DNA of 64,000 nucleotides from an uncultured Ruminiclostridium sp. (GTDB lineage: Bacteria > Bacillota > Clostridia > Oscillospirales > Ruminococcaceae): positions 349 to 64,348 of the forward strand of contig CAYVZH010000010.1 of NCBI GenBank assembly GCA_964456025.1, given 5' to 3'. Made by a program: the position numbers and the translations under genes. Positions within the stretch are counted from its first letter, which is position 1. Every line of letters begins with the position of its first letter. This document shows positions 1,859 through 64,000 of this stretch, piece after piece. The notes beneath the pieces are model-generated. The model saw only the letters and a list, made by a program, of their open reading frames with translations. It was not told where the DNA came from and made no database searches.

Positions 1859-1889
1859 CGGCGACGTTTGAATCACTCCTTTCGTGTCA

Positions 1890-1990
1890 TACTGTTTCAC
1901 GACCCGAATGTGTACAAAAATTCAAGCAAAAGCTTTGATTTATGCGGTTTTGTGCAGAATTTTTGTCTACACATTGGGAGTGAAACAGTA
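1890..1990 (+). mobile_element. Family A palindromic MITE-like element (101 bp)
   Basis: Terminal inverted repeats TACTGTTTCAC/GTGAAACAGTA, core CAAGCAAAAGCTTTGATTTATGCGGTTTTG, flanked by TCA and TTA. The TTA is the stop codon of the adjacent gene. Confidence 0.75.
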
Positions 1991-3058
1991 TTAGGAAAAG
2001 ATCATTGTACTCAGCAGGTTTGCCAGCGCCCCCGTATACGTGTCGATCATCAGAAGCACCGCGACCGCCATCGGAACCGTCAGCAGGAGCATTTTCACCT
2101 TTTTCCCGTTCCCGATCTCGTCCCAGACCTTCGGGACGCGGTAGCGGCGGATCTGCTTCAGCTTGATGAACAGGTGGACGATCCCCGCGAGCCCGAGCAG
2201 AAGCGCGCTGATCGTATAGACCGCGAAAACGACGATCATCAGCATATCCCCGTCGGGGATCTCGCCCTCCGCCGCGCCCGAAAGAAGGTAATCCTGCACC
2301 GAGGGCGTGGCGATCAGGAGGGCGATCCCGCCCGAAACGCTGTTTACCAGAATGTGGATCACCGTCGTCGGGATCAGCGAATCGGTCACGTCCGCGATAT
2401 AGCCGAGCGCGATCCCGATCGCCGCCGCGTAAAAGCACTGGCTTAAATTCCCGTGGAAAAGGCCGAAGAAGATCCCGGTAAAAAAGATCGCAAGACCGTT
2501 CCCGTAGGGCTTCAGCGTCCGAAGCAGCGTTCCGCGGAACACAAATTCCTCAAAGATCGGCGCAATGACCGCCGCGAATAGGAAAAATGCCCAGGCGGTT
2601 CCCATGTTCGGCGCAAGCATTTGCGTGATCGGATTCATGGATTCGGTCAGGTCGCTGTCCTTCGTGGCGAAATAGGTCACCGCGACCGTCAGAAGGTTCA
2701 GAAGCTGTCCAAGCCCGTATACGGCAGGGAAGTTCCCGACCGCGCGGGCGCATTTTTTCGGGACATGGTACAGCGCGCGCAGCTTTTTGCCCCGTTCGCC
2801 GAAAAACCCGAACATTCCCGCGCTGATGACGGCGGGGAGGAACTGTAAAAAAAGGAAAGAGACCGTTAAATGGAGAAGATAGAGCGCATCGGGAGAAAGA
2901 CGTTCCCCGCCGAGCCGGTAAAGCAGCTCCAGCGAAAGGCTCGCGGGAACGCGGAGAAAAATAATGACCGCCGCGAAAACGCCCACCTTATAGGCGGTCT
3001 TTTTATATTCGGGAAGCAGGGAAACCACCTCCACCGATTCGGATATTCTTTCTTCCAT
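1991..3058 (-). CDS. CPBP (CAAX/Abi) family intramembrane glutamic endopeptidase
   Basis: APIFEEFVFRG, FGLFHGN and VIHILVN motifs; multi-TM. Confidence 0.85.
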   Translation of the reverse strand: MEERISESVEVVSLLPEYKKTAYKVGVFAAVIIFLRVPASLSLELLYRLGGERLSPDALYLLHLTVSFLFLQFLPAVISAGMFGFFGERGKKLRALYHVPKKCARAVGNFPAVYGLGQLLNLLTVAVTYFATKDSDLTESMNPITQMLAPNMGTAWAFFLFAAVIAPIFEEFVFRGTLLRTLKPYGNGLAIFFTGIFFGLFHGNLSQCFYAAAIGIALGYIADVTDSLIPTTVIHILVNSVSGGIALLIATPSVQDYLLSGAAEGEIPDGDMLMIVVFAVYTISALLLGLAGIVHLFIKLKQIRRYRVPKVWDEIGNGKKVKMLLLTVPMAVAVLLMIDTYTGALANLLSTMIFS

Positions 3059-3094: not shown

Positions 3095-3450
3095 TTTAAG
3101 AGAAAAAATATATTACCGGGGGACGCTGTCCCCCGAACCCCCTGCAACCCTTTGAAAAGGCTTGACCTAAACTTTAATATTGCTTTATTGGGATATAATA
3201 AAAAGGAGAAAGTTTTTTACAATTAGACAAGTTTAGGAAAAATTCGACGAATAGTTAAAAATTCCTTGCTTTTAATAAATTTGAAAAAGCGATATTGCCT
3301 TTCGCTTCCTTTCGGTGTCGAAAGGAAGTGGGGTTCGGGGCGCGACAGGAGGTCGCGAGGTAAGCGCCCAAGGCGCCGCACGGACGCGGCGCAAAACAAA
3401 GCGCTTGCCAACGAAGCTCCCCAAAATAAATATATTTTCTCTCTTTTTTC
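3095..3450. repeat. Family B bipartite REP-like element (two inverted arms around a 99-bp AT-rich spacer)
   Basis: Left arm ends AATATTGCTTT (3186) and right arm starts AAAGCGATATTGCC (3286). GGGGACGCTGTCCCC hairpin. 3155-3186 is the exact reverse complement of 63501-63532. Confidence 0.75.
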
Positions 3451-3470: not shown

Positions 3471-4853
3471 TTACTTTTTCTTTCTCAGTTTATTTTTTTC
3501 CCAATGCTCGATCACGCGGGTATCGGCGCGCTCGACGGCGAGACCGTCAGCGGGGACGTTTCCGGTAATGGTCGAGCCGGCGCCCGTCGTCGCGTTCGCG
3601 CCGATCTCGACCGGCGCGACGAGGTTCGTATTACAGCCGATAAAGGCATGATCGCCGATCACGGTACGGTATTTATTGATCCCGTCGTAATTTGCCGTAA
3701 CGCAGCCGCAGCCGAAGTTCACCCCGCGCCCGACGTCGCTGTCCCCGATATAGGTCAGGTGTCCCGCCGAGGTATTTTCGCCGATCTCGGAGTTCTTTAC
3801 CTCGACAAAATCGCCGATCTTGACCCCCTCGTGCAGGATCGTACCGGGACGAAGGTGGGCGAACGGGCCGACCTTTGCACGGTCACGGATCTCGGCAGAA
3901 TACGCCTGTACCGCGTTTAAAACAACGCCGTTCCCAATGCGGCAGTTCTCGATCACACAGGACGGGCCGATCACACAGCCCTCACCGATCTCGGTCGTTC
4001 CCCGAAGGATCGTATTCGGGAGGATCCTTGTATCCCGCCCGATCTTTACGTCCTTCCCGATGATGACGCCGTCCACGCTCAGGAATTCCACCCCGTTCGC
4101 GAGGTGTTCCTCAAAAACGCGGAGCCGCGCGACCTCGTTCAGCATGAGCAGCCCCTTCCGATCGTTCGCCCCGAGGACGAGATCGGGATTTTCCGCGGTA
4201 AAGCATTCCGCCCGTCCGCCCTTTTCGCGGATCAGCGCGACCGTATCGGTCAGGTAATATTCGCCCGTGATCGGGTTCGGCGAAAGCAGCGAAAGCGCGT
4301 CCGAAAGCGCCTTTCCGTTAAACCAGTAGACCCCCGCATTCACCTCGGCAATGGCTCTCTGCTCATCGGTGCAGTCCTTCTGCTCCACGATCGAGAGGAA
4401 TTCGCCGCTTTCGCCGCGGACGATCCGCCCGTAGCCTGTCGGGTCGCTCAGCTCCGACGAAACGACGGTCACGGCGTTCCCGTTCTCCTCATGAAGCCGA
4501 AGCGCGTCCGTGATCGTCCGCACATCGACGAACGGCATATCGCCGTTAAACACAAGCACGTTTTCGCTCTGTTCGATTAGCGGGAGCGCCTGCCGCACGG
4601 CGTGACCCGTGCCCTTCCGCTCGCTTTGCAGATACGTCTGTAAAAATCCGCGGCGGGAAAGGTAATCGGTGACCTCCTCCGCGCCGCTCCCGATCACGAT
4701 CCCGATCTCCTTCGGAGAAAATCCCGCGCCCGTTACGCTGTCGAGGATCCAGCCGAGCATGGGCTGCTCCAGCACCTCGCAAAGCACCTTCGGGTGAGCG
4801 GATTTCATGCGTTTTCCGTCTCCTGCCGCTAAAATGACCGCACACTGTTTCAT
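3471..4853 (-). CDS. glmU: Bifunctional UDP-GlcNAc pyrophosphorylase / GlcN-1-P acetyltransferase
   Basis: ILAAGDGKRMKS..PKVL motif, EYYLTD, C-terminal hexapeptide repeats, 460 aa. Confidence 0.97.
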   Translation of the reverse strand: MKQCAVILAAGDGKRMKSAHPKVLCEVLEQPMLGWILDSVTGAGFSPKEIGIVIGSGAEEVTDYLSRRGFLQTYLQSERKGTGHAVRQALPLIEQSENVLVFNGDMPFVDVRTITDALRLHEENGNAVTVVSSELSDPTGYGRIVRGESGEFLSIVEQKDCTDEQRAIAEVNAGVYWFNGKALSDALSLLSPNPITGEYYLTDTVALIREKGGRAECFTAENPDLVLGANDRKGLLMLNEVARLRVFEEHLANGVEFLSVDGVIIGKDVKIGRDTRILPNTILRGTTEIGEGCVIGPSCVIENCRIGNGVVLNAVQAYSAEIRDRAKVGPFAHLRPGTILHEGVKIGDFVEVKNSEIGENTSAGHLTYIGDSDVGRGVNFGCGCVTANYDGINKYRTVIGDHAFIGCNTNLVAPVEIGANATTGAGSTITGNVPADGLAVERADTRVIEHWEKNKLRKKK

Positions 4854-5722: not shown

Positions 5723-6487
5723 TTACTCGCCCAGATAAGCGGTAATGACCTGCGGATCGTTTAAAACCTGCGCAGTCTCACCCTGCACCAGAACCTGTCC
5801 GAAGTTCAGTACCGTAAGCTCCTCACAGATCCCGCTTACAAGCCGCATATCGTGCTCGATCAGAAGGATCGTCATATCAAATTTATCGCGGACGAAGCGG
5901 ATCGTGCTCATCAGCTCCTCCGTCTCGTTCGGGTTCATGCCCGCCGCCGGCTCGTCAAGAAGCAGAAGCTTCGGATCGGTCGCGAGCGCCCGCGCGATCT
6001 CAAGCTTTCTCTGCTTTCCGTAGGGGAGGTTCGCGGCGGTAATATTCGCCTCTTTTTCAAGTCCCATGACCGTCAGCAGCTCCATCGCCCGCTCGTTCAT
6101 CTGCTTTTCCACTTTAAAATACCGCGGGAGCCGTAAGATCCCCTCAATCGTCGTATAGCCCATGCGGTTATGAAGCCCGACCTTTACGTTATCGAGCACG
6201 CTCAGCGCCTTAAACAGGCGGATATTCTGAAACGTGCGGGCGATCCCGGCTTTATTGATCGAGATCGTATTCATGCCGACGATATTTTTCCCGTCGAGAA
6301 GCACCGTCCCCGTATCCGCCTTATAAACGCCCGTCAGGAGGTTGAACGCCGTGGTTTTTCCCGCGCCGTTCGGTCCGATCATGCCGTAAAGCTGTCCCTT
6401 CCGGATCGTCATGTTCAGGTCGTTTACCGCCTTTAAGCCGCCGAAGGAGATCCCGAGGTGCGTTACCTCAAGCATATTTTCGCTCAT
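5723..6487 (-). CDS. livG: Branched-chain amino acid ABC transporter ATP-binding protein
   Basis: GPNGAGKTT, GIARTFQNIRLF, LPYGKQRKLEIARALA, DEPAAGMNP. Confidence 0.95.
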   Translation of the reverse strand: MSENMLEVTHLGISFGGLKAVNDLNMTIRKGQLYGMIGPNGAGKTTAFNLLTGVYKADTGTVLLDGKNIVGMNTISINKAGIARTFQNIRLFKALSVLDNVKVGLHNRMGYTTIEGILRLPRYFKVEKQMNERAMELLTVMGLEKEANITAANLPYGKQRKLEIARALATDPKLLLLDEPAAGMNPNETEELMSTIRFVRDKFDMTILLIEHDMRLVSGICEELTVLNFGQVLVQGETAQVLNDPQVITAYLGE

Positions 6488-7569
6488 GCGCCCGCGCCCC
6501 CTTCCGTCGCTTCCGTTTTCTTTTTAAACAGCTTCGCGCGGATCGTGTTTTTCAGCGACTCGCGCAGCCCGATCGCCTTCGGGCTCCAGTTAAAGAGCAT
6601 GACCGCGATCAGTACGACCGCGTACACGAGCATTCGGTAATCCCCGATAAAGCGGAGCCGCTCGGGTAAAATGTACAGGATAATCGTCGCGATGACCGAG
6701 CCGCGAATGCTCCCGATCCCGCCGAGTACGACGTATACGAGGATCATGATCGAGGCGTTATAGTTGAACTTGTCCCCCGCGGAGGTCAGCGTGGCGTAGT
6801 TATGGGAGTAAAGCGCGCCCGCCGCGCCCGCGAGCGCCGCCGAGATGGTAAAAACCATGAGCTTGTATTTCGTAATATTGATCCCGACGGATTCCGCCGC
6901 GATCCGGTTGTCGCGGATCGACATGATCGCCCTTCCGTCGCGGGAATTTACCAGATTCAGCACGATAAACAGCGTGATTATCACGAGGATAAACCCGACC
7001 GTAAAGGTCGAATCCTGCGGCGTTCCCGTAATTCCCTGCGCGCCCTTGATAATGACCTTTCCGTCGGATTCCAGCCCGAGCGCCATCGTGTTTTCAAGCG
7101 AAAAATGAAGCCCTCTCGAATCAACGCCGAGATTGATGACATTTACGACATTTTTAATGATCTCCCCGAACGCAAGCGTTACGATCGCGAGATAGTCGCC
7201 CTTTAAGCGGAGCACCGGAATTCCGATCAGGATCCCGAAGATCGCCGCCGACGCCGCGCCGATCAGGATCGCGAGCGTAAAGCGAAGCGGAACCGCCGTG
7301 ATCGTTTCCTCCATACAGCGGGAAAAGACCGCGCTCGTATACGCGCCGACGCACATGAAGCCCGCGTGTCCGAGGCTAAGCTCTCCGAGAACGCCGACCA
7401 CGAGATTCAGCGAGACCGCCATCACGATATAAATGCAAAGCGGAACGAGATAGCCGCGCATCGAGCTGGAGAGATTCCCCGTCCCCTGTAAAATCATCAT
7501 CACGGCATACGCGGCGATCACGATCCCGTAGGTGACGGATTGATTGATCAGATTCTTTCTTTTGTTCAT
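6484..7569 (-). CDS. livM: Branched-chain amino acid ABC transporter permease
   Basis: LSLGHAGF, RLKGDYLAIVTLAFGEII, GGIGSIRG. Confidence 0.93.
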   Translation of the reverse strand: MNKRKNLINQSVTYGIVIAAYAVMMILQGTGNLSSSMRGYLVPLCIYIVMAVSLNLVVGVLGELSLGHAGFMCVGAYTSAVFSRCMEETITAVPLRFTLAILIGAASAAIFGILIGIPVLRLKGDYLAIVTLAFGEIIKNVVNVINLGVDSRGLHFSLENTMALGLESDGKVIIKGAQGITGTPQDSTFTVGFILVIITLFIVLNLVNSRDGRAIMSIRDNRIAAESVGINITKYKLMVFTISAALAGAAGALYSHNYATLTSAGDKFNYNASIMILVYVVLGGIGSIRGSVIATIILYILPERLRFIGDYRMLVYAVVLIAVMLFNWSPKAIGLRESLKNTIRAKLFKKKTEATEGGAGA

Positions 7570-20024: not shown

Positions 20025-20028
20025 CCAA

Positions 20029-20128
20029 TACTATTTCACTTCCAATGTGTAGACAAAAATTCTGCACAAAATCCATTTATCCAAGATTTTGTTTGAATTT
20101 TTGTACACATTTAGGTCGTGAAATAGTC
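20029..20128 (-). mobile_element. Family A palindromic MITE-like element (reverse orientation)
   Basis: TACTATTTCAC..GTGAAATAGT termini; the interior is the reverse complement of 1890-1990; begins 5 bp after the rnfA-like stop. Confidence 0.7.
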
Positions 20129-20261
20129 AACTTCCTTTTGCGAAACGAAAACTTTTTTGCAGGGTATTTTCGTTCCCTTTCTCTATGCTTCTTCGTTTTA
20201 AATAAGGTTTGTGCATTTTTTGTTCCTTTGGCTGACCAAAGGAACCGAAAGTTCACCTCGG

Positions 20262-20335
20262 CAAAAGCTTTGCTTGCGCCGCGTCCGTGCGGCGCCTTGG
20301 GCTTTTGCCTGCAAGCCTCCTGCTTGCCCTCTGCG
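20262..20335 (-). repeat. Family B sub-module (reverse)
   Basis: Reverse complement CAGGAGG..CCCAAGGCGCCGCACGGACGCGGCGCAA matches 3345-3400 and 63560-63615. Confidence 0.65.
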
Positions 20336-40326: not shown

Positions 40327-40600
40327 AAAAGAGAAAAAATTATATGACCGGGGGACGCTGTCCCCCGAACCCCCTGCTTCCTTTTGTGCCAAAAGGAAGC
40401 GAAAAGCAGCACTGCTTTATAAAGAATAAAATTAAATTGTTATTCTGCAATTTTAATCCAAGTTTTCTGCAAACCTGTTGAATCGTGCGGACTTTTCCTT
40501 TTTAGTGGCTTGTAAAAGCGATATTGCCTTTCGGTTCCTTTCGGCTACGAAAGGAACTAGGGGTTTGGGGACAACGTCCCCAAAAAAAATATATGTCTTT
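40327..40600. repeat. Family B bipartite element (96-bp spacer)
   Basis: Left arm with GGGGGACGCTGTCCCCCGAACCCCCTG identical to 3117-3144; right arm AAAGCGATATTGCCTTTCG..GGGGACAACGTCCCC. Confidence 0.75.
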
Positions 40601-43127: not shown

Positions 43128-43153
43128 GAAGCGTCCTTTCCGTGAAAATTTCA

Positions 43154-43463
43154 TACTTATTTTCGCTGAAAAAGCGTCGAAAAAATCAAGCAAAAACTTG
43201 GATTTGTGCGGTTTTGCGCAGATTTTTTCGGTACGCTTTTAAGCGAAAATCAGTATCATGCTGCTTCACGACCCGAATGTGCACAAAATCCAAGCAAAGA
43301 CTTAAATTTGTACTTATTTTCAATTAAAAAGCGTCGAAAAAAACAAGCAAAAGCTCGGATTTATGCGGTTTTGCACAGATTTTTTCGGTACACTTTTAAG
43401 CGAAAATCAGTACTATGCGGCTTTGCGCAGAATTTTTGTTTACACATCGGAAGCGAAGCAGTA
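43154..43463 (+). mobile_element. Stack of three family A MITE-like copies (one tandem, one nested)
   Basis: Copy 43154-43255 flanked by TCA/TCA; a second copy (43259-43310 plus 43413-43463) is split by a third copy (43311-43412). Confidence 0.75.
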
Positions 43464-43567
43464 TCGGTCACTTTTTGTCATTTTTGACGAAGGGGCTGTC
43501 CCGTTTGATATTTCTATCTATTATATCACATTTTTTCCGAAATTGCAACACCTCGGGAAAGAATAAA

Positions 43568-48346: not shown

Positions 48347-48440
48347 AAAGCAATATTGCTTTTCGCTTCCTTTTGGCTACAAAAGGAAGCAGGGGGTATG
48401 GGGGACAGGGTCCCCCAAAAACATATACTTCTCTCTTATA
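48347..48440 (+). repeat. Family B arm
   Basis: AAAGCAATATTGCTTTTCGCTTCCTTTTG..CAAAAGGAAGCAGGGGGTATGGGGGACAGGGTCCCCCA. Confidence 0.7.
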
Positions 48441-59532: not shown

Positions 59533-59705
59533 TTACTTTGGCAGGAGTGCGCCCCACCCTTTTCCGTGGCACGGCGGCTTTTCGGTTGAATCTCCGCCGA
59601 AATGAAACCGCGCGGTTATTGAAAACCGCGCCGGAATCAGGTATAATAGAGATAAAGAAAACGCGGCACGCCTGCCTAATACGAATCTGCGATGAAAACC
59701 GCAGA

Positions 59706-59757
59706 TAAAAATCTGCGCAAAACCGCATATATCAAAGCTTTCGCTTGATTTTTTGTA
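59706..59757 (-). mobile_element. Family A internal core remnant
   Basis: AAAAATCTGCGCAAAACCGCATATATCAAAGCTTTCGCTTGATTTTTTGTA is the reverse complement of the family A core; termini absent. Confidence 0.65.
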
Positions 59758-59800
59758 TGGTTTTCAATCGCATATTAGTATAAAAGAAAGGAAAAATATC

Positions 59801-60619
59801 ATGAAAAAGATCCTCGGAGCCAACATCGCGCGGTATCGGAAGGAGATCGGCCTGACACAGCGGGAGCTTGCCGAACGGCTGAACATTTCCTGCCAGGCGG
59901 TAAGTAAGTGGGAAAACGGTCAGACCGCGCCCGATCTGTACCTCCTGCCCTCGATCGCCGAGCTCCTTCACGTCAGCACGGATCGCCTGATGGGGTGCTT
60001 CCACCGCTTTGATCCCGTGAACGATTACGAGAGCCGCTATAACACCGACGAATATTACTGGGGTGTAAAGCCCTCGTATATGTGCCTGAAAATTCTCGAG
60101 CTTCTGCCGCCCGACCGCTCCCTGAGCGTTCTGGACATCGGCTGCGGCGAGGGGAAGGACGCCGTTTTCCTCGCGCGCTGCGGCTATCGGGTAAGCGCGT
60201 TCGACGCGACCGAGATCGGCGTGGAAAAAACCAAGCGGCTCGCGGAAAAGGCGGGCGTTTTCGTGGACGCGTTCACGGCGAATCTCCTCGATTTCCGGCT
60301 GGATCGGAATTTCGACATTTTATTTTCCAGCGGCGTGTTCCACTTTATGAAGCCCGAGCTGCGCGAGGAAATCATTGAAAATTACAAGCTTCACACCAAC
60401 CCGAACGGGATCCACGCGATCAACGTGTTTGTTGAAAAGCCGTTCGTCCCCGACCCGCCCGAAAAAGAGGTGCGCTATCGCTGGAGAAGCGGCGAGCTGT
60501 TTACGATGTACCATGACTGGTATATCGAGGACTGCTCGGAGGTGGTATTTGACTGCAATTCGAGCGGCGTTCCCCATAAACACGCGATGAATACGGTATA
60601 CGCAAGGAAGAGAACGTAA
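59801..60619 (+). CDS. XRE HTH fused to a TehB-like class I SAM methyltransferase
   Basis: LTQRELAERLNISCQAVSKWENG; VLDIGCGEGKDAVFLA; YKLHTNPNGIHAIN. Confidence 0.85.
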   Translation: MKKILGANIARYRKEIGLTQRELAERLNISCQAVSKWENGQTAPDLYLLPSIAELLHVSTDRLMGCFHRFDPVNDYESRYNTDEYYWGVKPSYMCLKILELLPPDRSLSVLDIGCGEGKDAVFLARCGYRVSAFDATEIGVEKTKRLAEKAGVFVDAFTANLLDFRLDRNFDILFSSGVFHFMKPELREEIIENYKLHTNPNGIHAINVFVEKPFVPDPPEKEVRYRWRSGELFTMYHDWYIEDCSEVVFDCNSSGVPHKHAMNTVYARKRT

Positions 60620-60642
60620 GGAGCTTTTCCGAAAGGAACCCC

Positions 60643-60671
60643 TTGACAAATCCCCCGAAATATGCTAGAAT
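60643..60671 (+). promoter_or_regulatory. Sigma-A promoter of the T-box leader
   Basis: TTGACA-17-TAGAAT with TG extension. Confidence 0.8.
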
Positions 60672-60686
60672 AACCTCAATATCCAC

Positions 60687-61030
60687 AAAGCGTTGATGGG
60701 AAAGCAGTAGGAACCGGTTTTTCCTTTCATACTGATTTTTAATCAAAAAGTGTACAAAAAATCAAGCAAAAGCTTTGATTTATGCGGTTTTGCGAAGATT
60801 TTTTGTCTACACTTTTATTAAAAATCAGTATCAGAGACCCCGCGGCAGGTGTGAGCGGGGAGGAGCCCGGTTCTCGAATTACCTCCCGGAGCGGCAGCCG
60901 GAACGGGTTTCCTTCGGATTCCCCACTACGGCGCACGGGCCCGCCCGTTACAGCGGATCATAGTAATAAACCGAGGTGGTACCGCGATCTTTCGCCCTCT
61001 TTTGGCATTACGCCAAAGGAGGTTATTTTT
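60687..61030 (+). ncRNA. T-box riboswitch, probable Tyr specifier (UAC), interrupted in Stem I
   Basis: GCGTTGATGGGA..AGTAG 5' end, AGAGA, GGTGTGA loop, GAATTAC-CTCCCGGAG specifier region, CCGTTA, antiterminator AGGTGGTACCGCG..CGCCCT, terminator CTCTTTTGGC/GCCAAAGGAG plus T run. Confidence 0.88.
60730..60830 (+). mobile_element. Family A palindromic MITE-like element inside the T-box
   Basis: TACTGATTTTTAAT/ATTAAAAATCAGTA termini, 101 bp, TCA direct repeats at 60727-29 and 60831-33. Confidence 0.85.
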
Positions 61031-61049
61031 TTAAAAGGAGACGAGAACG

Positions 61050-61937
61050 CTGAAAACGATCCCCGCAAAGACCATTCTCCAGAAAAACAAATCGACCGCC
61101 TGGTTCGGGAACGACTATAACATGAACCTTTATCGGGGCTGCTGCCACGGCTGCATTTACTGCGACAGCCGGAGCGAATGCTATCGGATCGAGGATTTCG
61201 ACGAGGTGCGGGCAAAGGAAAATGCGCTCCCGATCCTTCGGGACGAGCTTCGCCGAAAGGTTCGCGGCGGCGTGATCGGGACGGGGAGCATGAGCGACCC
61301 GTATAATCCCTTTGAGGCGACCGAGCTTCTCTCGCGCCACGCGGCGGAGCTGATCGACGCGTTCGGCTTCGGGCTTACGGTCATTACGAAAAGTACGCTC
61401 CTTACCCGCGATATTGACGTTTTTCAAGGCATTCGGGAGCATTCGCCGATCCTGCTCAAAATGACGGTCACGACGGCGGACGACGCGCTGTCCCGCCTTG
61501 TCGAGCCGAACGCCCCGCCCTCCTCGGAACGCTTCGCGGCGCTGAAAACGCTCGCGGACGCGGGACTTTTTACGGGGATCACGCTGATGCCCGTTCTCCC
61601 GTTCCTTGAGGACAGCGACGAAAATATCCGCACGATCGTAAGAACGGCAAAGCAAAGCGGCGTCCGCGTGATCTATCCCGCCTTCGGCATGACCCTCCGC
61701 GATCGGCAGCGGGATCATTATTTCGCCGCGCTCGACCGCCTTTTCCCCGAAGAGAAGCTGTCCGAGCGGTATCGGAAGCAGTTCGGGAATTACTACGAGT
61801 GCCGCTCGCCGCGGGTGAAGGCGCTCTGGCGCGTTTTTACCGAGGAATGCGAAAAGGCGGGGATCCTGTACGAAATGCGGGATATTATCCGCGCCTATCG
61901 GCAGGGATATGAGGAGCAGCAATTAACGTTTTTTTAA
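61050..61937 (+). CDS. Radical SAM protein (SplB/Rv2578c-like), probable CTG start
   Basis: CCHGCIYC = CxxxCxxC; GSMSDPY; ITKS. The in-frame extension KTIPAKTIL begins at CTG 9 nt after AAGGAG. Confidence 0.85.
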   Translation: MKTIPAKTILQKNKSTAWFGNDYNMNLYRGCCHGCIYCDSRSECYRIEDFDEVRAKENALPILRDELRRKVRGGVIGTGSMSDPYNPFEATELLSRHAAELIDAFGFGLTVITKSTLLTRDIDVFQGIREHSPILLKMTVTTADDALSRLVEPNAPPSSERFAALKTLADAGLFTGITLMPVLPFLEDSDENIRTIVRTAKQSGVRVIYPAFGMTLRDRQRDHYFAALDRLFPEEKLSERYRKQFGNYYECRSPRVKALWRVFTEECEKAGILYEMRDIIRAYRQGYEEQQLTFF

Positions 61938-62162
61938 AGTTAAAGGTATCAACCTCCCGAACCCCTTGCGCTGTAACGATTTCATAGATTCGAGTAACGA
62001 TTGGTACACAAGTACTTTATTTCAGCACAGAACGGCAAATCGAAATCCGGTAAGGCAGGATAGCATGAGGAAGCTGAAATTGCTCAAAACACCAACTGAT
62101 AACGGAATAACAGATCCGGTTATACACAGAGATAACTTTCATGTTTGCGGAGGCGTTTTAAC

Positions 62163-62653
62163 TTGGAAAAGTATTTTGAGATATTAAAAGAAAACGGGGC
62201 TGATTTAGCCATAAAGATAACGGCTGATACCATAGTGACGGCAGCCTGGACAGTCTATCGCTGCAAATACGGGTGCGATACTTATGGGAAAAGCCACTGC
62301 TGTCCGCCGAATTGTCCCACATGGAAAGAAACGCAGGAAATGATAAACTGCTTTCACTACGGGATTCTGTTCAGATGCCATGAAATGAGCATAGTGACGC
62401 CTCTTGCCGTAAAAACGGCGCGAGAGTTGTTTTTGGACGATTATTACAAAGTTATTGCTTTTGGCAGCGGACCATGCAAGAAATGCCAGACATGCAATCC
62501 GGACCGCTGTAATTTTCCGGGCAAAACCGTTCCATCTATGGAAGCGTGTGGAATTGATGTTTTGCAACGGTAAGGAACAACAATCTTGAAATCCATACAT
62601 TACGAGAAAAAGATGATATTCAGAACCACTTTGGGCTTATATTGGTTGAATGA
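62163..62653 (+). pseudogene. DUF2284-like Cys-rich metal-binding protein with a single-base frameshift
   Basis: CKYGC..CCPP, GPCKKCQTC, PSMEACGIDV. Adding one T to the run at 62560-63 gives ..GIDVFATVRNNNLEIHTL..QNHFGLILVE*. Confidence 0.75.
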
Positions 62654-62839
62654 ATTTCAAATTCCGGTTTATCGGGAGGTTTATAAAAATCAACATTTTC
62701 ACTGATACATAGCTGTATCAACAGAGGTAACGGAATACCGGAAACACTTGAAAGGTCGTGATATCCGTGAGATTTCAGAAAAATCTCATCGATTACGGAA
62801 AAGCCGAATGAAAAAATCATTTCAGAAGGAGGCTTTTCT

Positions 62840-63319
62840 ATGATAAGGCAAGCGGAAAAAACCGATCTGCCGAATCTTACGGCGCTTTTCCGACAGCTTC
62901 ATGCGCATCACGTCCGGATCAAGCCCGAATCCTTCCGAATGCCGGAGGATCAATGGTTTTCCGAACGGATCGGCGGAATTCTGGACGACGGCGAAATGAC
63001 CGTTCTCGTAAGCGTTGGAGCGGGCGGCGATCTGAACGGCTATGCGGCAGTACGGATCATGACCGTCGATTCCGCCGAAAGGATCCCACGGAAAATGTGC
63101 TATATTGAATGCTTCGCGGTGGCGGAAAGCGCGCGCCGGAAAGGGATCGGAACGGCGCTTTTCGACGCGGTGAAGATGTTCGCGAGGAAAAACGGCTGCG
63201 GGAGCGTTCAGCTCGGTGTTACCGCGGTCAATACGGACGCTGTCCGATTTTATGAAAAAATGGGGCTTGTCCCGCGAACCGTACAAATGGAAATACGGTC
63301 TGTCGAAGAAGAGAAATAA
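62840..63319 (+). CDS. GNAT family N-acetyltransferase
   Basis: YIECFAVAESARRKGIGTALF..NTDAVRFYEKMG. Confidence 0.9.
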   Translation: MIRQAEKTDLPNLTALFRQLHAHHVRIKPESFRMPEDQWFSERIGGILDDGEMTVLVSVGAGGDLNGYAAVRIMTVDSAERIPRKMCYIECFAVAESARRKGIGTALFDAVKMFARKNGCGSVQLGVTAVNTDAVRFYEKMGLVPRTVQMEIRSVEEEK

Positions 63320-63324
63320 AAGAG

Positions 63325-63660
63325 AAGTATTATTTTGCAGGGGCGCTGCCCCCGCACCCCCGCTTCCTTTTGCAGCCAAAAGGAAGCGAAAAGCAATATG
63401 GCTTTATATAGGATTATCAAGGAAGAAAGTCTTGCCAAATTCCTCAATTTATCCGAGAAAAGCCGAATCTATCAAAATTACGGTTTATAAAAAACCGTTA
63501 AAAGCAATATTAAAGTTTAGGTCAAGCCTTTTTAAAGGCTTGCGGGGTCTGGGGATGCGACAGGAGGTCGCAAGTCAAGCGCCCCAAGTGCCGCATGGAC
63601 GCGGCACAAAACAAAGCGCTTGACACAGCGTCCCTGCATCAATATATTTTTCTCTTTTTA
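63325..63660. repeat. Family B bipartite element (95-bp spacer)
   Basis: Left arm ends AATATGGCTTT (63405) and right arm starts AAAGCAATATT (63501); shares modules with 3095-3450. Confidence 0.75.
63620..63648 (+). promoter_or_regulatory. Candidate sigma-A promoter for tyrS within the repeat
   Basis: TTGACA-17-TATATT, 50 bp upstream of the tyrS ATG. Confidence 0.55.
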
Positions 63661-63697
63661 AATCTGTTTCAATAAAAAATTTCAGGAGGAATAAAAA

Positions 63698-64000
63698 ATG
63701 AAGCTTTACGAAGAACTCGTCCGCCGCGGGCTGATCGCGCAGGTAACGGACGAAAAAGAGATCAGCGAAATGATCAACGAGGGGAAGGCGACCTTTTACA
63801 TCGGCTTCGACCCCACGGCGGACAGCCTGCACGTCGGGCATTTTATGGCGCTTTGCCTCATGAAGCGGCTCCAGCAGGCGGGAAATAAGCCGATCGCCCT
63901 GCTCGGCGGCGGGACGGGCATGATCGGCGATCCGTCGGGAAAAACCGATATGCGGAAGATGATGACGAAGGAGACGATCGAGCACAATATCGCCTGCTTT
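63698..64000 (+). CDS. tyrS: Tyrosine--tRNA ligase (3' truncated by window edge)
   Basis: AGGAGG RBS; [45 protein letters not shown]. Confidence 0.96.

Follow-up and report, generated by a model that had tools for sequence, protein, structure and literature searches.

The T-box leader of Bacillus subtilis tyrS is the founding T-box riboswitch (Rfam family RF00230). It controls tyrosyl-tRNA synthetase (TyrRS) and has a UAC specifier codon, a UGGU antiterminator bulge, a GA/kink-turn (K-turn) motif, AG bulge and distal loop motifs, stem II, stem IIA/B, and competing antiterminator and terminator structures. The same elements are present in a leader at positions 60687-61032 (+ strand) of a 64,000-nt stretch of the genome of an uncultured Ruminiclostridium sp. 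(contig CAYVZH010000010.1), hereafter called the window, where they precede a series of genes ending with tyrS. Documented T-box operons include some whose first gene does not encode the cognate ligase, e.g., those with the Cys and Asn ligases in second position, and about 8% of the surveyed T-boxes precede genes of unrelated or unknown function (Wels et al. 2008, PMC2494555). The locus resembles the ligase-second operons in having one T-box of matching specificity and a ligase downstream.

A preliminary description of the window, made from the sequence by itself, had placed a radical SAM gene, a DUF2284 gene and a GNAT acetyltransferase gene between a tyrosine T-box and tyrS. This gene content was confirmed, as were strand and distance: the three genes are followed by tyrS at 63698, all on the + strand, and the ATG of tyrS lies 2.67 kb past the terminator of the leader. 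Taking all the evidence together, we consider it probable that a tRNA-Tyr T-box heads a multi-gene operon in which the radical SAM gene comes first and tyrS last.

Structure and specificity of the leader

The leader spans about 345 nt and was delimited by RF00230 and by motif reading. It comprises an interrupted stem I, stem II, stem IIA/B, stem III, an antiterminator and a terminator, and its true 5' half, read from the sequence, is AAAGCGUUGAUGGGAAAGCAGUAGGAACCGG, starting at 60687. It is preceded by a sigma-70-type promoter at 60643-60671 (+; TTGACA-17-TAGAAT with a TG extension) that matches 11 of 12 consensus positions, and this block is also kept in the related loci L009, L010, and L089. 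Stem I carries the GA/K-turn motif (UGAUG...GGAGC), the specifier loop (AGCAGUA...GAAU-UAC-C, with S-turn and codon), the AG bulge UCAGAGA, which is interrupted by an insert, and the distal loop GGCAGGUGUGA; its helix partners were predicted after removing the insert from the fold. The conserved T-box sequence GGUGGUACCGCG is at 60975-60986 (+), and the UGGU of its bulge (60977-60980) would pair with the 3' ACCA of the tRNA. In the antiterminator, the helices GAGG/CCUC and GCGA/UCGC enclose a 7-nt bulge, UGGUACC, which starts with UGGN. The intrinsic terminator at 60996-61032 (+) has an 11-bp stem (60996-61022), a 5-nt loop and a T run and competes with the antiterminator: CCUC at 60996-60999 is both the 5' strand of the former and the 3' strand of the latter, which makes the two structures mutually exclusive. 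The insert aside, every T-box hallmark could be read directly, stems II, IIA/B and III included. By its sequence, the leader is a genuine tyrosine-sensing, classical transcription-attenuating T-box riboswitch at the head of the operon.

An Rfam scan of the whole 64-kb window at the gathering threshold (93 bits for RF00230) returned no match at all. A local Rfam scan recovered RF00230 with 58.6 bits (E = 2.8e-12) at 60778-61002, with the 5' half misaligned. Orthologous leaders free of the insert scored 99.5 (L009), 108.5, 107.8, 110.2, 123.8, and 136.1 bits. The low score of the window leader has a probable cause in a 101-nt palindrome that splits stem I and leads the model to misalign the 5' half. 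Absence of a T-box as the reason for the empty scan was rejected, since the 101-nt insertion explains it.

Specificity was assessed in a table of leaders from 51 species plus the window (n = 52). The specifier codon UAC, at 60880-60882 (+) in the window, was invariant in 52/52 leaders and always in the same register, separated by 1 nt and a 4-nt helix strand from the NGAG(C/U) strand of the K-turn, and the covariance-model (Rfam) alignments set it in the codon columns. The base on its 5' side varied, being absent, U, A or C (GAA-UAC, GAAU-UAC, GAGC-UAC, GAUACC-UAC, etc.). The base on its 3' side was A in 31 leaders, C in 12 (including that of the window), G in 7, and U in 2. The specifier matches the regulated gene, as tyrS lies downstream, and the antiterminator bulge was UGGU in all the linked leaders. 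Bacterial tRNA-Tyr has an A73 discriminator, with which UGGU would pair. A search for a tRNA-Tyr gene on which to check A73 found none in the window or in the 47 scanned loci. The UAC specifier and the fit to tRNA-Tyr given in the preliminary description therefore stand.

Layout of the operon in related genomes

We compared 80 loci seeded with the radical SAM gene, using one representative genome per species (80 species). A T-box motif, the radical SAM gene and tyrS were found in this order and on one strand in 47 of them, and in four more the T-box and the radical SAM gene were present and the contig ended ahead of tyrS. Eight loci had the radical SAM gene and tyrS without a T-box, behind a plain promoter and a short leader, and Rfam agreed for all eight. 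The remaining 21 loci, which are the most distant ones (62-69% identity), had the radical SAM gene without T-box or tyrS. The T-box counts over all loci were made with a motif regular expression, and an Rfam check on 14 loci agreed for 6/6 positives and 8/8 negatives. The operon layout is common to about 50 related gut Ruminococcaceae species.

Each radical SAM locus with a T-box had a single one, never directly before tyrS. The gap between the radical SAM gene and tyrS varied from 30 nt to 2.9 kb and was 30-130 nt in at least 13 species. Because these gaps are so short, tyrS must be read from the T-box promoter in many relatives. The riboswitch had been described as decoupled from tyrS; this was not borne out, and decoupling is plausible only in the genome studied here, with its repeat in stem I and a promoter-like site at 63620-63648.

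The genes found between T-box and tyrS were diverse. They encode a NAD-epimerase-family protein in 13 loci, a membrane protein in 11, and CN-hydrolase, endonuclease V or others in a few. Five loci had a methyltransferase gene, which preceded the radical SAM gene in four. GNAT homologs were found just before tyrS in 19 related loci, and none of the 80 loci carried DUF2284, which was seen only in the window.

To offset the ascertainment bias of the first set, metagenome contigs were scanned with a TyrRS alignment, which gave 80 further loci, 72 of them with enough upstream sequence. The radical SAM gene was absent from all 80. In the 72 assessable loci, the T-box motif was within 300 nt of tyrS in 45 and farther away in 8, and no motif was found in 19. 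Among the eight farther T-boxes, another gene was sometimes present in between, e.g., one encoding an EamA-like transporter or a NUDIX-like protein. The lack of the radical SAM gene in this set and its many adjacent T-boxes make a T-box directly before tyrS the outgroup state. By this comparison, the radical SAM gene is an old, clade-wide insertion between T-box and tyrS, and the diversity of genes behind Tyr T-boxes in different lineages hints that such units frequently acquire unrelated ones. The check by synteny put forward in the preliminary description thus revealed an insertion, as anticipated, and the proposal that genes were inserted between Tyr T-box and tyrS is right in the evolutionary sense. 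It fails if the three genes are taken to have arrived in one event: the radical SAM gene is old, the GNAT gene is patchy, and DUF2284 is a pseudogene on a low-GC island of the window only.

Several features of individual loci were also recorded. The eight species without T-box (loci L033, L038, L039, L040, L043, L044, L046, and L049, all Ruminococcus, upstream of the radical SAM gene at ~5001) have a TTGACA/TATAAT promoter and a leader of ~30-70 nt, and their tyrS appears to be without tRNA-sensing control. Endonuclease V lies ahead of the radical SAM gene after the Tyr T-box in L064 and L067 (4310-5020). Directly before tyrS and behind a Tyr T-box, L147 (3072-3932) and L169 (5475-6014) encode an EamA-like transporter and a NUDIX-like hydrolase, respectively. 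The T-box promoter of many Ruminococcus species lies right next to tRNA genes, namely a tRNA-Thr(GGU) gene on the opposite strand in L018, L022, L025, L029, and L045 (~4136-4639, -), and a Val-Asp-(Phe)-Gly tRNA cluster on the same strand in L064, L067, and L086 (+). Read-through from tRNA operons into the leader is conceivable in those Ruminococcus species.

A mobile palindrome in stem I

The insert in stem I is a 101-nt palindrome at 60730-60830, within the AG bulge, flanked by a 3-bp TCA duplication (60727-60729 and 60831-60833). Alignment with L009, L010, L089, and L090 revealed an empty site: the match stops after 60729, starts again at 60831, and the two flanking alignments share 3 nt (TCA). 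The insert is AT-rich and has inverted arms. The window contains six full copies of the ~104-nt repeat family that it represents, at 1889-1992 (+), 20027-20128 (-), 43153-43257 (+), 43310-43413 (+), 59679-59781 (-), and 60729-60832 (+), and two fragments at 43259-43311 and 43414-43465. The copies share conserved tips of ~6 nt at each end (ATACTG...CAGTAT) and a 50-nt central core, and their ~20-nt arms differ among copies and stay self-complementary. No Rfam family matched the repeat, and a single match was found in the 80 related loci (L085, 10748-10815). In its length of ~100 nt, its palindromic, non-coding, multicopy and intergenic character and its short target duplication, the repeat resembles bacterial MITEs (miniature inverted-repeat transposable elements; reviewed in PMC10969869); the empty site in relatives is a further MITE-like trait.

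Two observations concern the repeat family itself. Arms that vary and yet remain self-complementary are not typical of MITEs and may reflect selection for a hairpin. The depth of words from the repeat in one RNA run (X25) was ~400 times that of the flanks.

Through the target duplication, UCAGAGA is present again on the 3' side of the hairpin. Folded by itself, the element reaches -36.4 kcal/mol, and in the minimum-free-energy fold of the whole leader, the stem of the insert is lengthened by an upstream CUUU that pairs with part of the AGAGA bulge. The insert may thus impair docking of the tRNA elbow on the platform formed by the AG bulge and the distal loop.

The radical SAM gene

The first gene of the operon, at 61047-61937 (+), encodes a radical SAM protein of the spore photoproduct lyase (SPL) family (COG1533-like). 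It matched PF04055 (Radical_SAM) with E = 1e-12 and 48.6 bits, against a cutoff of 29.5. Its orthologs have ~295 amino acids (aa), are 62-95% identical, come from Ruminococcus-like metagenome-assembled genomes and isolates, and are named "SPL family radical SAM protein" at NCBI. A CX3CX2C motif lies near the N terminus; C36, C40, and C43 were invariant in 18 sequences, as was the N terminus. The protein scored under the curated NCBIfam cutoffs for Rv2578c (135 versus 430 bits) and PA0069 (127.9 versus 360 bits), and by these scores it is related to both subfamilies and a member of neither. A sequence search of the PDB gave no match. The AlphaFold model, built with 18 close homologs, was poor (predicted local distance difference test score, pLDDT, 58.6; predicted template modeling score, pTM, 0.62). 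Foldseek with this low-confidence model gave best template modeling (TM) scores of 0.47-0.49 to 4FHC and 4FHG (both SPL) and to 4RH0 (E of ~2e-4), and the matches to SPL, BlsE, and LipA obtained with so poor a model point to no more than the generic radical SAM fold. The neighbors of the 21 unlinked orthologs were uninformative; they comprised a MATE-like transporter, membrane proteins and sugar permeases, and MutL was seen at two loci only.

The gene has lost its canonical start codon. At the orthologous position (61047-61052) the window reads ACG CTG, where L009 and L089 have ATG CTG, L010 has GTG, and L011 has ATG. The change from ATG to ACG leaves the Shine-Dalgarno sequence AAGGAG intact. 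The next ATG, at 61122, would drop 24 residues, many of them invariant. The ACG allele was found in eight independent assemblies. The ratio of nonsynonymous to synonymous substitution rates (dN/dS) against L009 was 0.126, compared to 0.148 for the L009-L010 pair, and relaxed selection was not detected by this test, which is blind to very recent inactivation. Either weak non-canonical initiation at ACG/CTG would suffice, or the loss of the start codon is recent. This lesion had been overlooked in the preliminary description, as had a frameshift in DUF2284.

DUF2284, GNAT, tyrS, and the upstream gene

Between the radical SAM and GNAT genes is a low-GC island at 61940-62840 (+), with a GC content of 0.36-0.47 against ~0.58 in the flanks, which is peculiar to this lineage. 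It carries the DUF2284 pseudogene (PF10050, E = 1e-28) at 62163-62573 (+), which goes on in the +1 frame to 62650. A 1-nt frameshift lies in a T run near 62557-62562: the first frame matched profile positions 3-136 of 161, so the PF10050 domain is not intact, and the conserved C terminus continues in the +1 frame. We read this as the insertion of a foreign DUF2284 gene that was frameshifted afterwards in this genome. The GNAT gene at 62840-63319 (+) is intact (159 aa; PF00583, E = 4e-18). Contigs of relatives at 90-95% identity in the RNA runs show the insertion site of the stem I palindrome empty, a direct join of 61935 to 63333 that skips DUF2284 and GNAT, and direct joins of ~63295 to ~63680 that leave GNAT adjoining tyrS.

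A spacer of 378 nt (63320-63697, +) separates GNAT from tyrS. It is composed of dispersed repeats, and a terminator scan found no canonical + strand terminator between the two genes. The spacer contains a near-consensus promoter-like site at 63620-63648 (TTGACA-17-TATATT), matching 11 of 12 consensus positions and located ~50 nt before tyrS. This site and the one before the T-box are the two best promoter matches in 60400-64000. The spacer repeats (63349-63405, 63501-63543, and 63557-63622) form a second dispersed intergenic family, with other copies in the window at 3129-3186, 3286-3312, 3342-3407, 20255-20327, 40362-40408, and 48347-48395, and it is also present in the spacer between the radical SAM gene and tyrS of L009. 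One copy provides the -35 half of the promoter-like site. The tyrS gene starts with the ATG at 63698 and is cut by the end of the window after 101 codons (63698-64000, +; PF00579, tRNA-synt_1b). The fragment scored 109.7 bits on TIGR00234, and the full-length ortholog of L009, which is 99% identical over the fragment, scored 410 bits.

Upstream of the leader, the gene at 59753-60619 encodes an XRE-type helix-turn-helix fused to a TehB-like S-adenosylmethionine-dependent methyltransferase, and its 5' end coincides in part with a copy of the 104-nt repeat.

Expression and history of the operon

In an R. albus-like operon (L063), contigs of a rumen metatranscriptome tile the leader, the radical SAM gene, a middle open reading frame (ORF) and tyrS with comparable depth, and some of them run across the radical SAM/ORF (5792-6047) and ORF/tyrS (6346-6664) junctions. 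This fits a single transcript and falls short of proof, as the contigs are undirected and may include DNA.

Following established T-box biology, transcription would start at the 60643-60671 promoter. Uncharged tRNA-Tyr would pair at two points, through its GUA anticodon with UAC in the specifier loop of stem I and through its free ACCA terminus with UGGU in the antiterminator bulge. With the antiterminator stabilized in this way, the polymerase would continue beyond the 60996-61032 terminator and transcribe the radical SAM gene, the DUF2284 pseudogene, GNAT and tyrS. Charged tRNA-Tyr would not stabilize the antiterminator, and transcription would stop. As members of one T-box unit, tyrS, the radical SAM gene and the small genes are all expected to be induced under tyrosine starvation. 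In this genome, tyrS is probably expressed at least in part from its own promoter, given the repeat in stem I, the lesions of the radical SAM and DUF2284 genes, and the promoter-like site before tyrS.

By the comparison of loci, a canonical T-box-tyrS unit gained the radical SAM gene once, in an ancestor of a large Ruminococcus-like clade, and the resulting unit has served since then as a landing site for assorted small genes. Mobile repeats have remodeled it further in this genome, by the palindrome in stem I and the repeat-filled spacer with its promoter-like site.

Alternative explanations

Two readings would deny the arrangement itself. One of them, an assembly chimera, draws on the repeat-rich nature of the region and on the Logan contigs, most of which start at 60765, the center of the palindrome; such a break is expected from de Bruijn assembly. 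A GenBank metagenome contig (L001), though, matches 60310-63854 with 100% identity, seven other runs yielded Logan contigs across 60765-62356 and 62221-63361, and dozens of species show the same gene order. The same allele is thus present in at least eight samples, and the lesions of the window recur in independent assemblies. These identical contigs rule out a chimera, whose likelihood we regard as negligible. The other reading takes the specifier as UUA or another codon, so that the leader would sense a tRNA other than tRNA-Tyr. The window loop, GAAUUACC, does contain UUA one nt upstream of the UAC reading, the base after UAC is C and not the usual purine, and UGGU also fits tRNA-Leu, which has A73 too. 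Against this, UUA is found in only a minority of the 52 leaders, since the preceding base varies, whereas UAC is fixed and aligned at the codon positions by the covariance model, and tyrS is the last gene of the unit. With the register of UAC fixed and its 5' neighbor variable, UUA is an accident of the clade of the window. The table of 52 leaders rules out a UUA/Leu specifier, and sensing of another tRNA is very improbable. The preliminary description had named both a chimera and a UUA specifier as findings that would overturn it; neither was encountered.

The other two readings concern what the operon does. A tRNA-Tyr T-box heading the operon remains our preferred explanation, and several observations weigh against it. 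The window leader, with its insert, scores under the Rfam gathering threshold. AGAGA is partly paired with CUUU beside the hairpin in the predicted fold, and docking of the tRNA elbow may be lost. A putative promoter lies close to tyrS at the edge of a repeat, and in another copy of this repeat (3342-3420) the spacer is 20 nt long and no gene follows. In the RNA runs, only relatives at 90-95% identity were found, as undirected contigs that possibly include DNA, and the T-box counts come from a motif regular expression, Rfam-checked on 14 loci only. The T-box of this genome could, as a sub-case of our explanation, be dead: it would always terminate, tyrS would be transcribed only from 63620-63648, and the other genes would be silent and decaying. 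The position of the insert exactly at the AG bulge, the engagement of part of AGAGA in the minimum-free-energy fold, the lost start codon, the DUF2284 frameshift and the close promoter match before tyrS all point this way. We nevertheless hold a dead T-box to be possible rather than probable, since the TCA duplication restores UCAGAGA, the element is able to form an arm of its own, the specifier, antiterminator and terminator are intact, the radical SAM ORF (its start aside) and GNAT are intact, the dN/dS of the former against L009 is no higher than that between L009 and L010, and at least eight samples share the same allele. A different possibility is that the operon is a true functional unit, in which the radical SAM protein, and perhaps GNAT, has a role linked to tyrosine or tRNA-Tyr, such as modification or repair of tRNA-Tyr or detoxification of an analog. 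The pairing of the radical SAM gene with tyrS lasts in at least 55 species despite frequent gains of genes in between, it outlives the loss of the T-box in eight, GNAT recurs directly before tyrS, and the nearest solved folds found with the poor model (pLDDT 58.6, TM 0.48) are SPLs, which act on nucleic acids. But the 21 distant ortholog species have no T-box, no tyrS and no informative shared neighbors, no TyrRS-seeded locus carries the radical SAM gene, the remaining genes in between bear no relation to one another, the structural model is poor, and this genome tolerates the loss of the radical SAM start codon. Such a functional unit is therefore unlikely, and the more specific idea that tRNA-Tyr, the substrates of TyrRS or an analog of tyrosine are the target of the SPL-family protein, with or without GNAT, is slightly less likely still. 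The Tyr-responsive modification pathway offered earlier as an alternative was not borne out, as the intervening genes vary and are functionally unrelated and the distant orthologs lack both T-box and tyrS.

Implications and comparison with known systems

The chief value of the locus lies in a conserved and unexplained partnership between a radical SAM gene and tyrS and in a natural series of operon remodeling. The layout is new and clade-wide in major fiber degraders of gut and rumen, with the essential tyrS placed last, behind an orphan radical SAM gene and changing small genes. The series leads from the canonical T-box-tyrS unit through the gain of the radical SAM gene and other gains and losses to the loss of the T-box (eight species) or its invasion by a repeat (this genome). 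The latter also probes, as an experiment of nature, how much additional RNA the AG-bulge platform of stem I tolerates. Two warnings follow for annotation: the Rfam gathering threshold misses riboswitches that hold a mobile repeat, and an annotation made from the first downstream gene alone would wrongly label this T-box as a regulator of the radical SAM gene. If the radical SAM protein does act on tRNA-Tyr, TyrRS substrates or an analog, this would explain why the clade keeps its gene in one transcription unit with tyrS, behind a T-box in most species and a plain promoter in others, and a large orphan branch of the SPL/COG1533 radical SAM family would have its first assigned function.

In the literature library that was searched, we found no report of a MITE or other mobile repeat within stem I of a T-box, and no paper that joins a T-box, an SPL-type radical SAM gene and tyrS. 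An extra helix in a T-box leader that is limited to one lineage is known from staphylococcal glyS (stem Sa; PMC9177973), and the insert described here is alike in both respects. Stem Sa, however, belongs to the terminator/antiterminator domain and is genus-wide and functional, whereas this insert, a recently arrived copy of a dispersed repeat, occupies the AG bulge of stem I. The repeat departs from bacterial MITEs (PMC10969869) in that only tips and core are conserved and the arms vary while remaining self-complementary. The radical SAM protein shares with SPL and COG1533 the CX3CX2C motif near the N terminus and, as far as its low-confidence model shows, a partial TIM-barrel radical SAM fold (best TM of ~0.48), and is ~45 residues shorter than SPL (295 versus 340 aa). 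In the ligase-second operons (PMC2494555), the usual partners serve the metabolism of the same amino acid, unlike the SPL-family radical SAM gene and the variable middle genes found here. Compared to the tyrS T-box of B. subtilis, tyrS is last and not first, 2.67 kb past the terminator, stem I holds a 101-nt mobile palindrome, and the base after the codon is C in place of the usual purine. The mechanism is the ordinary one, set within an undescribed, clade-specific operon layout.

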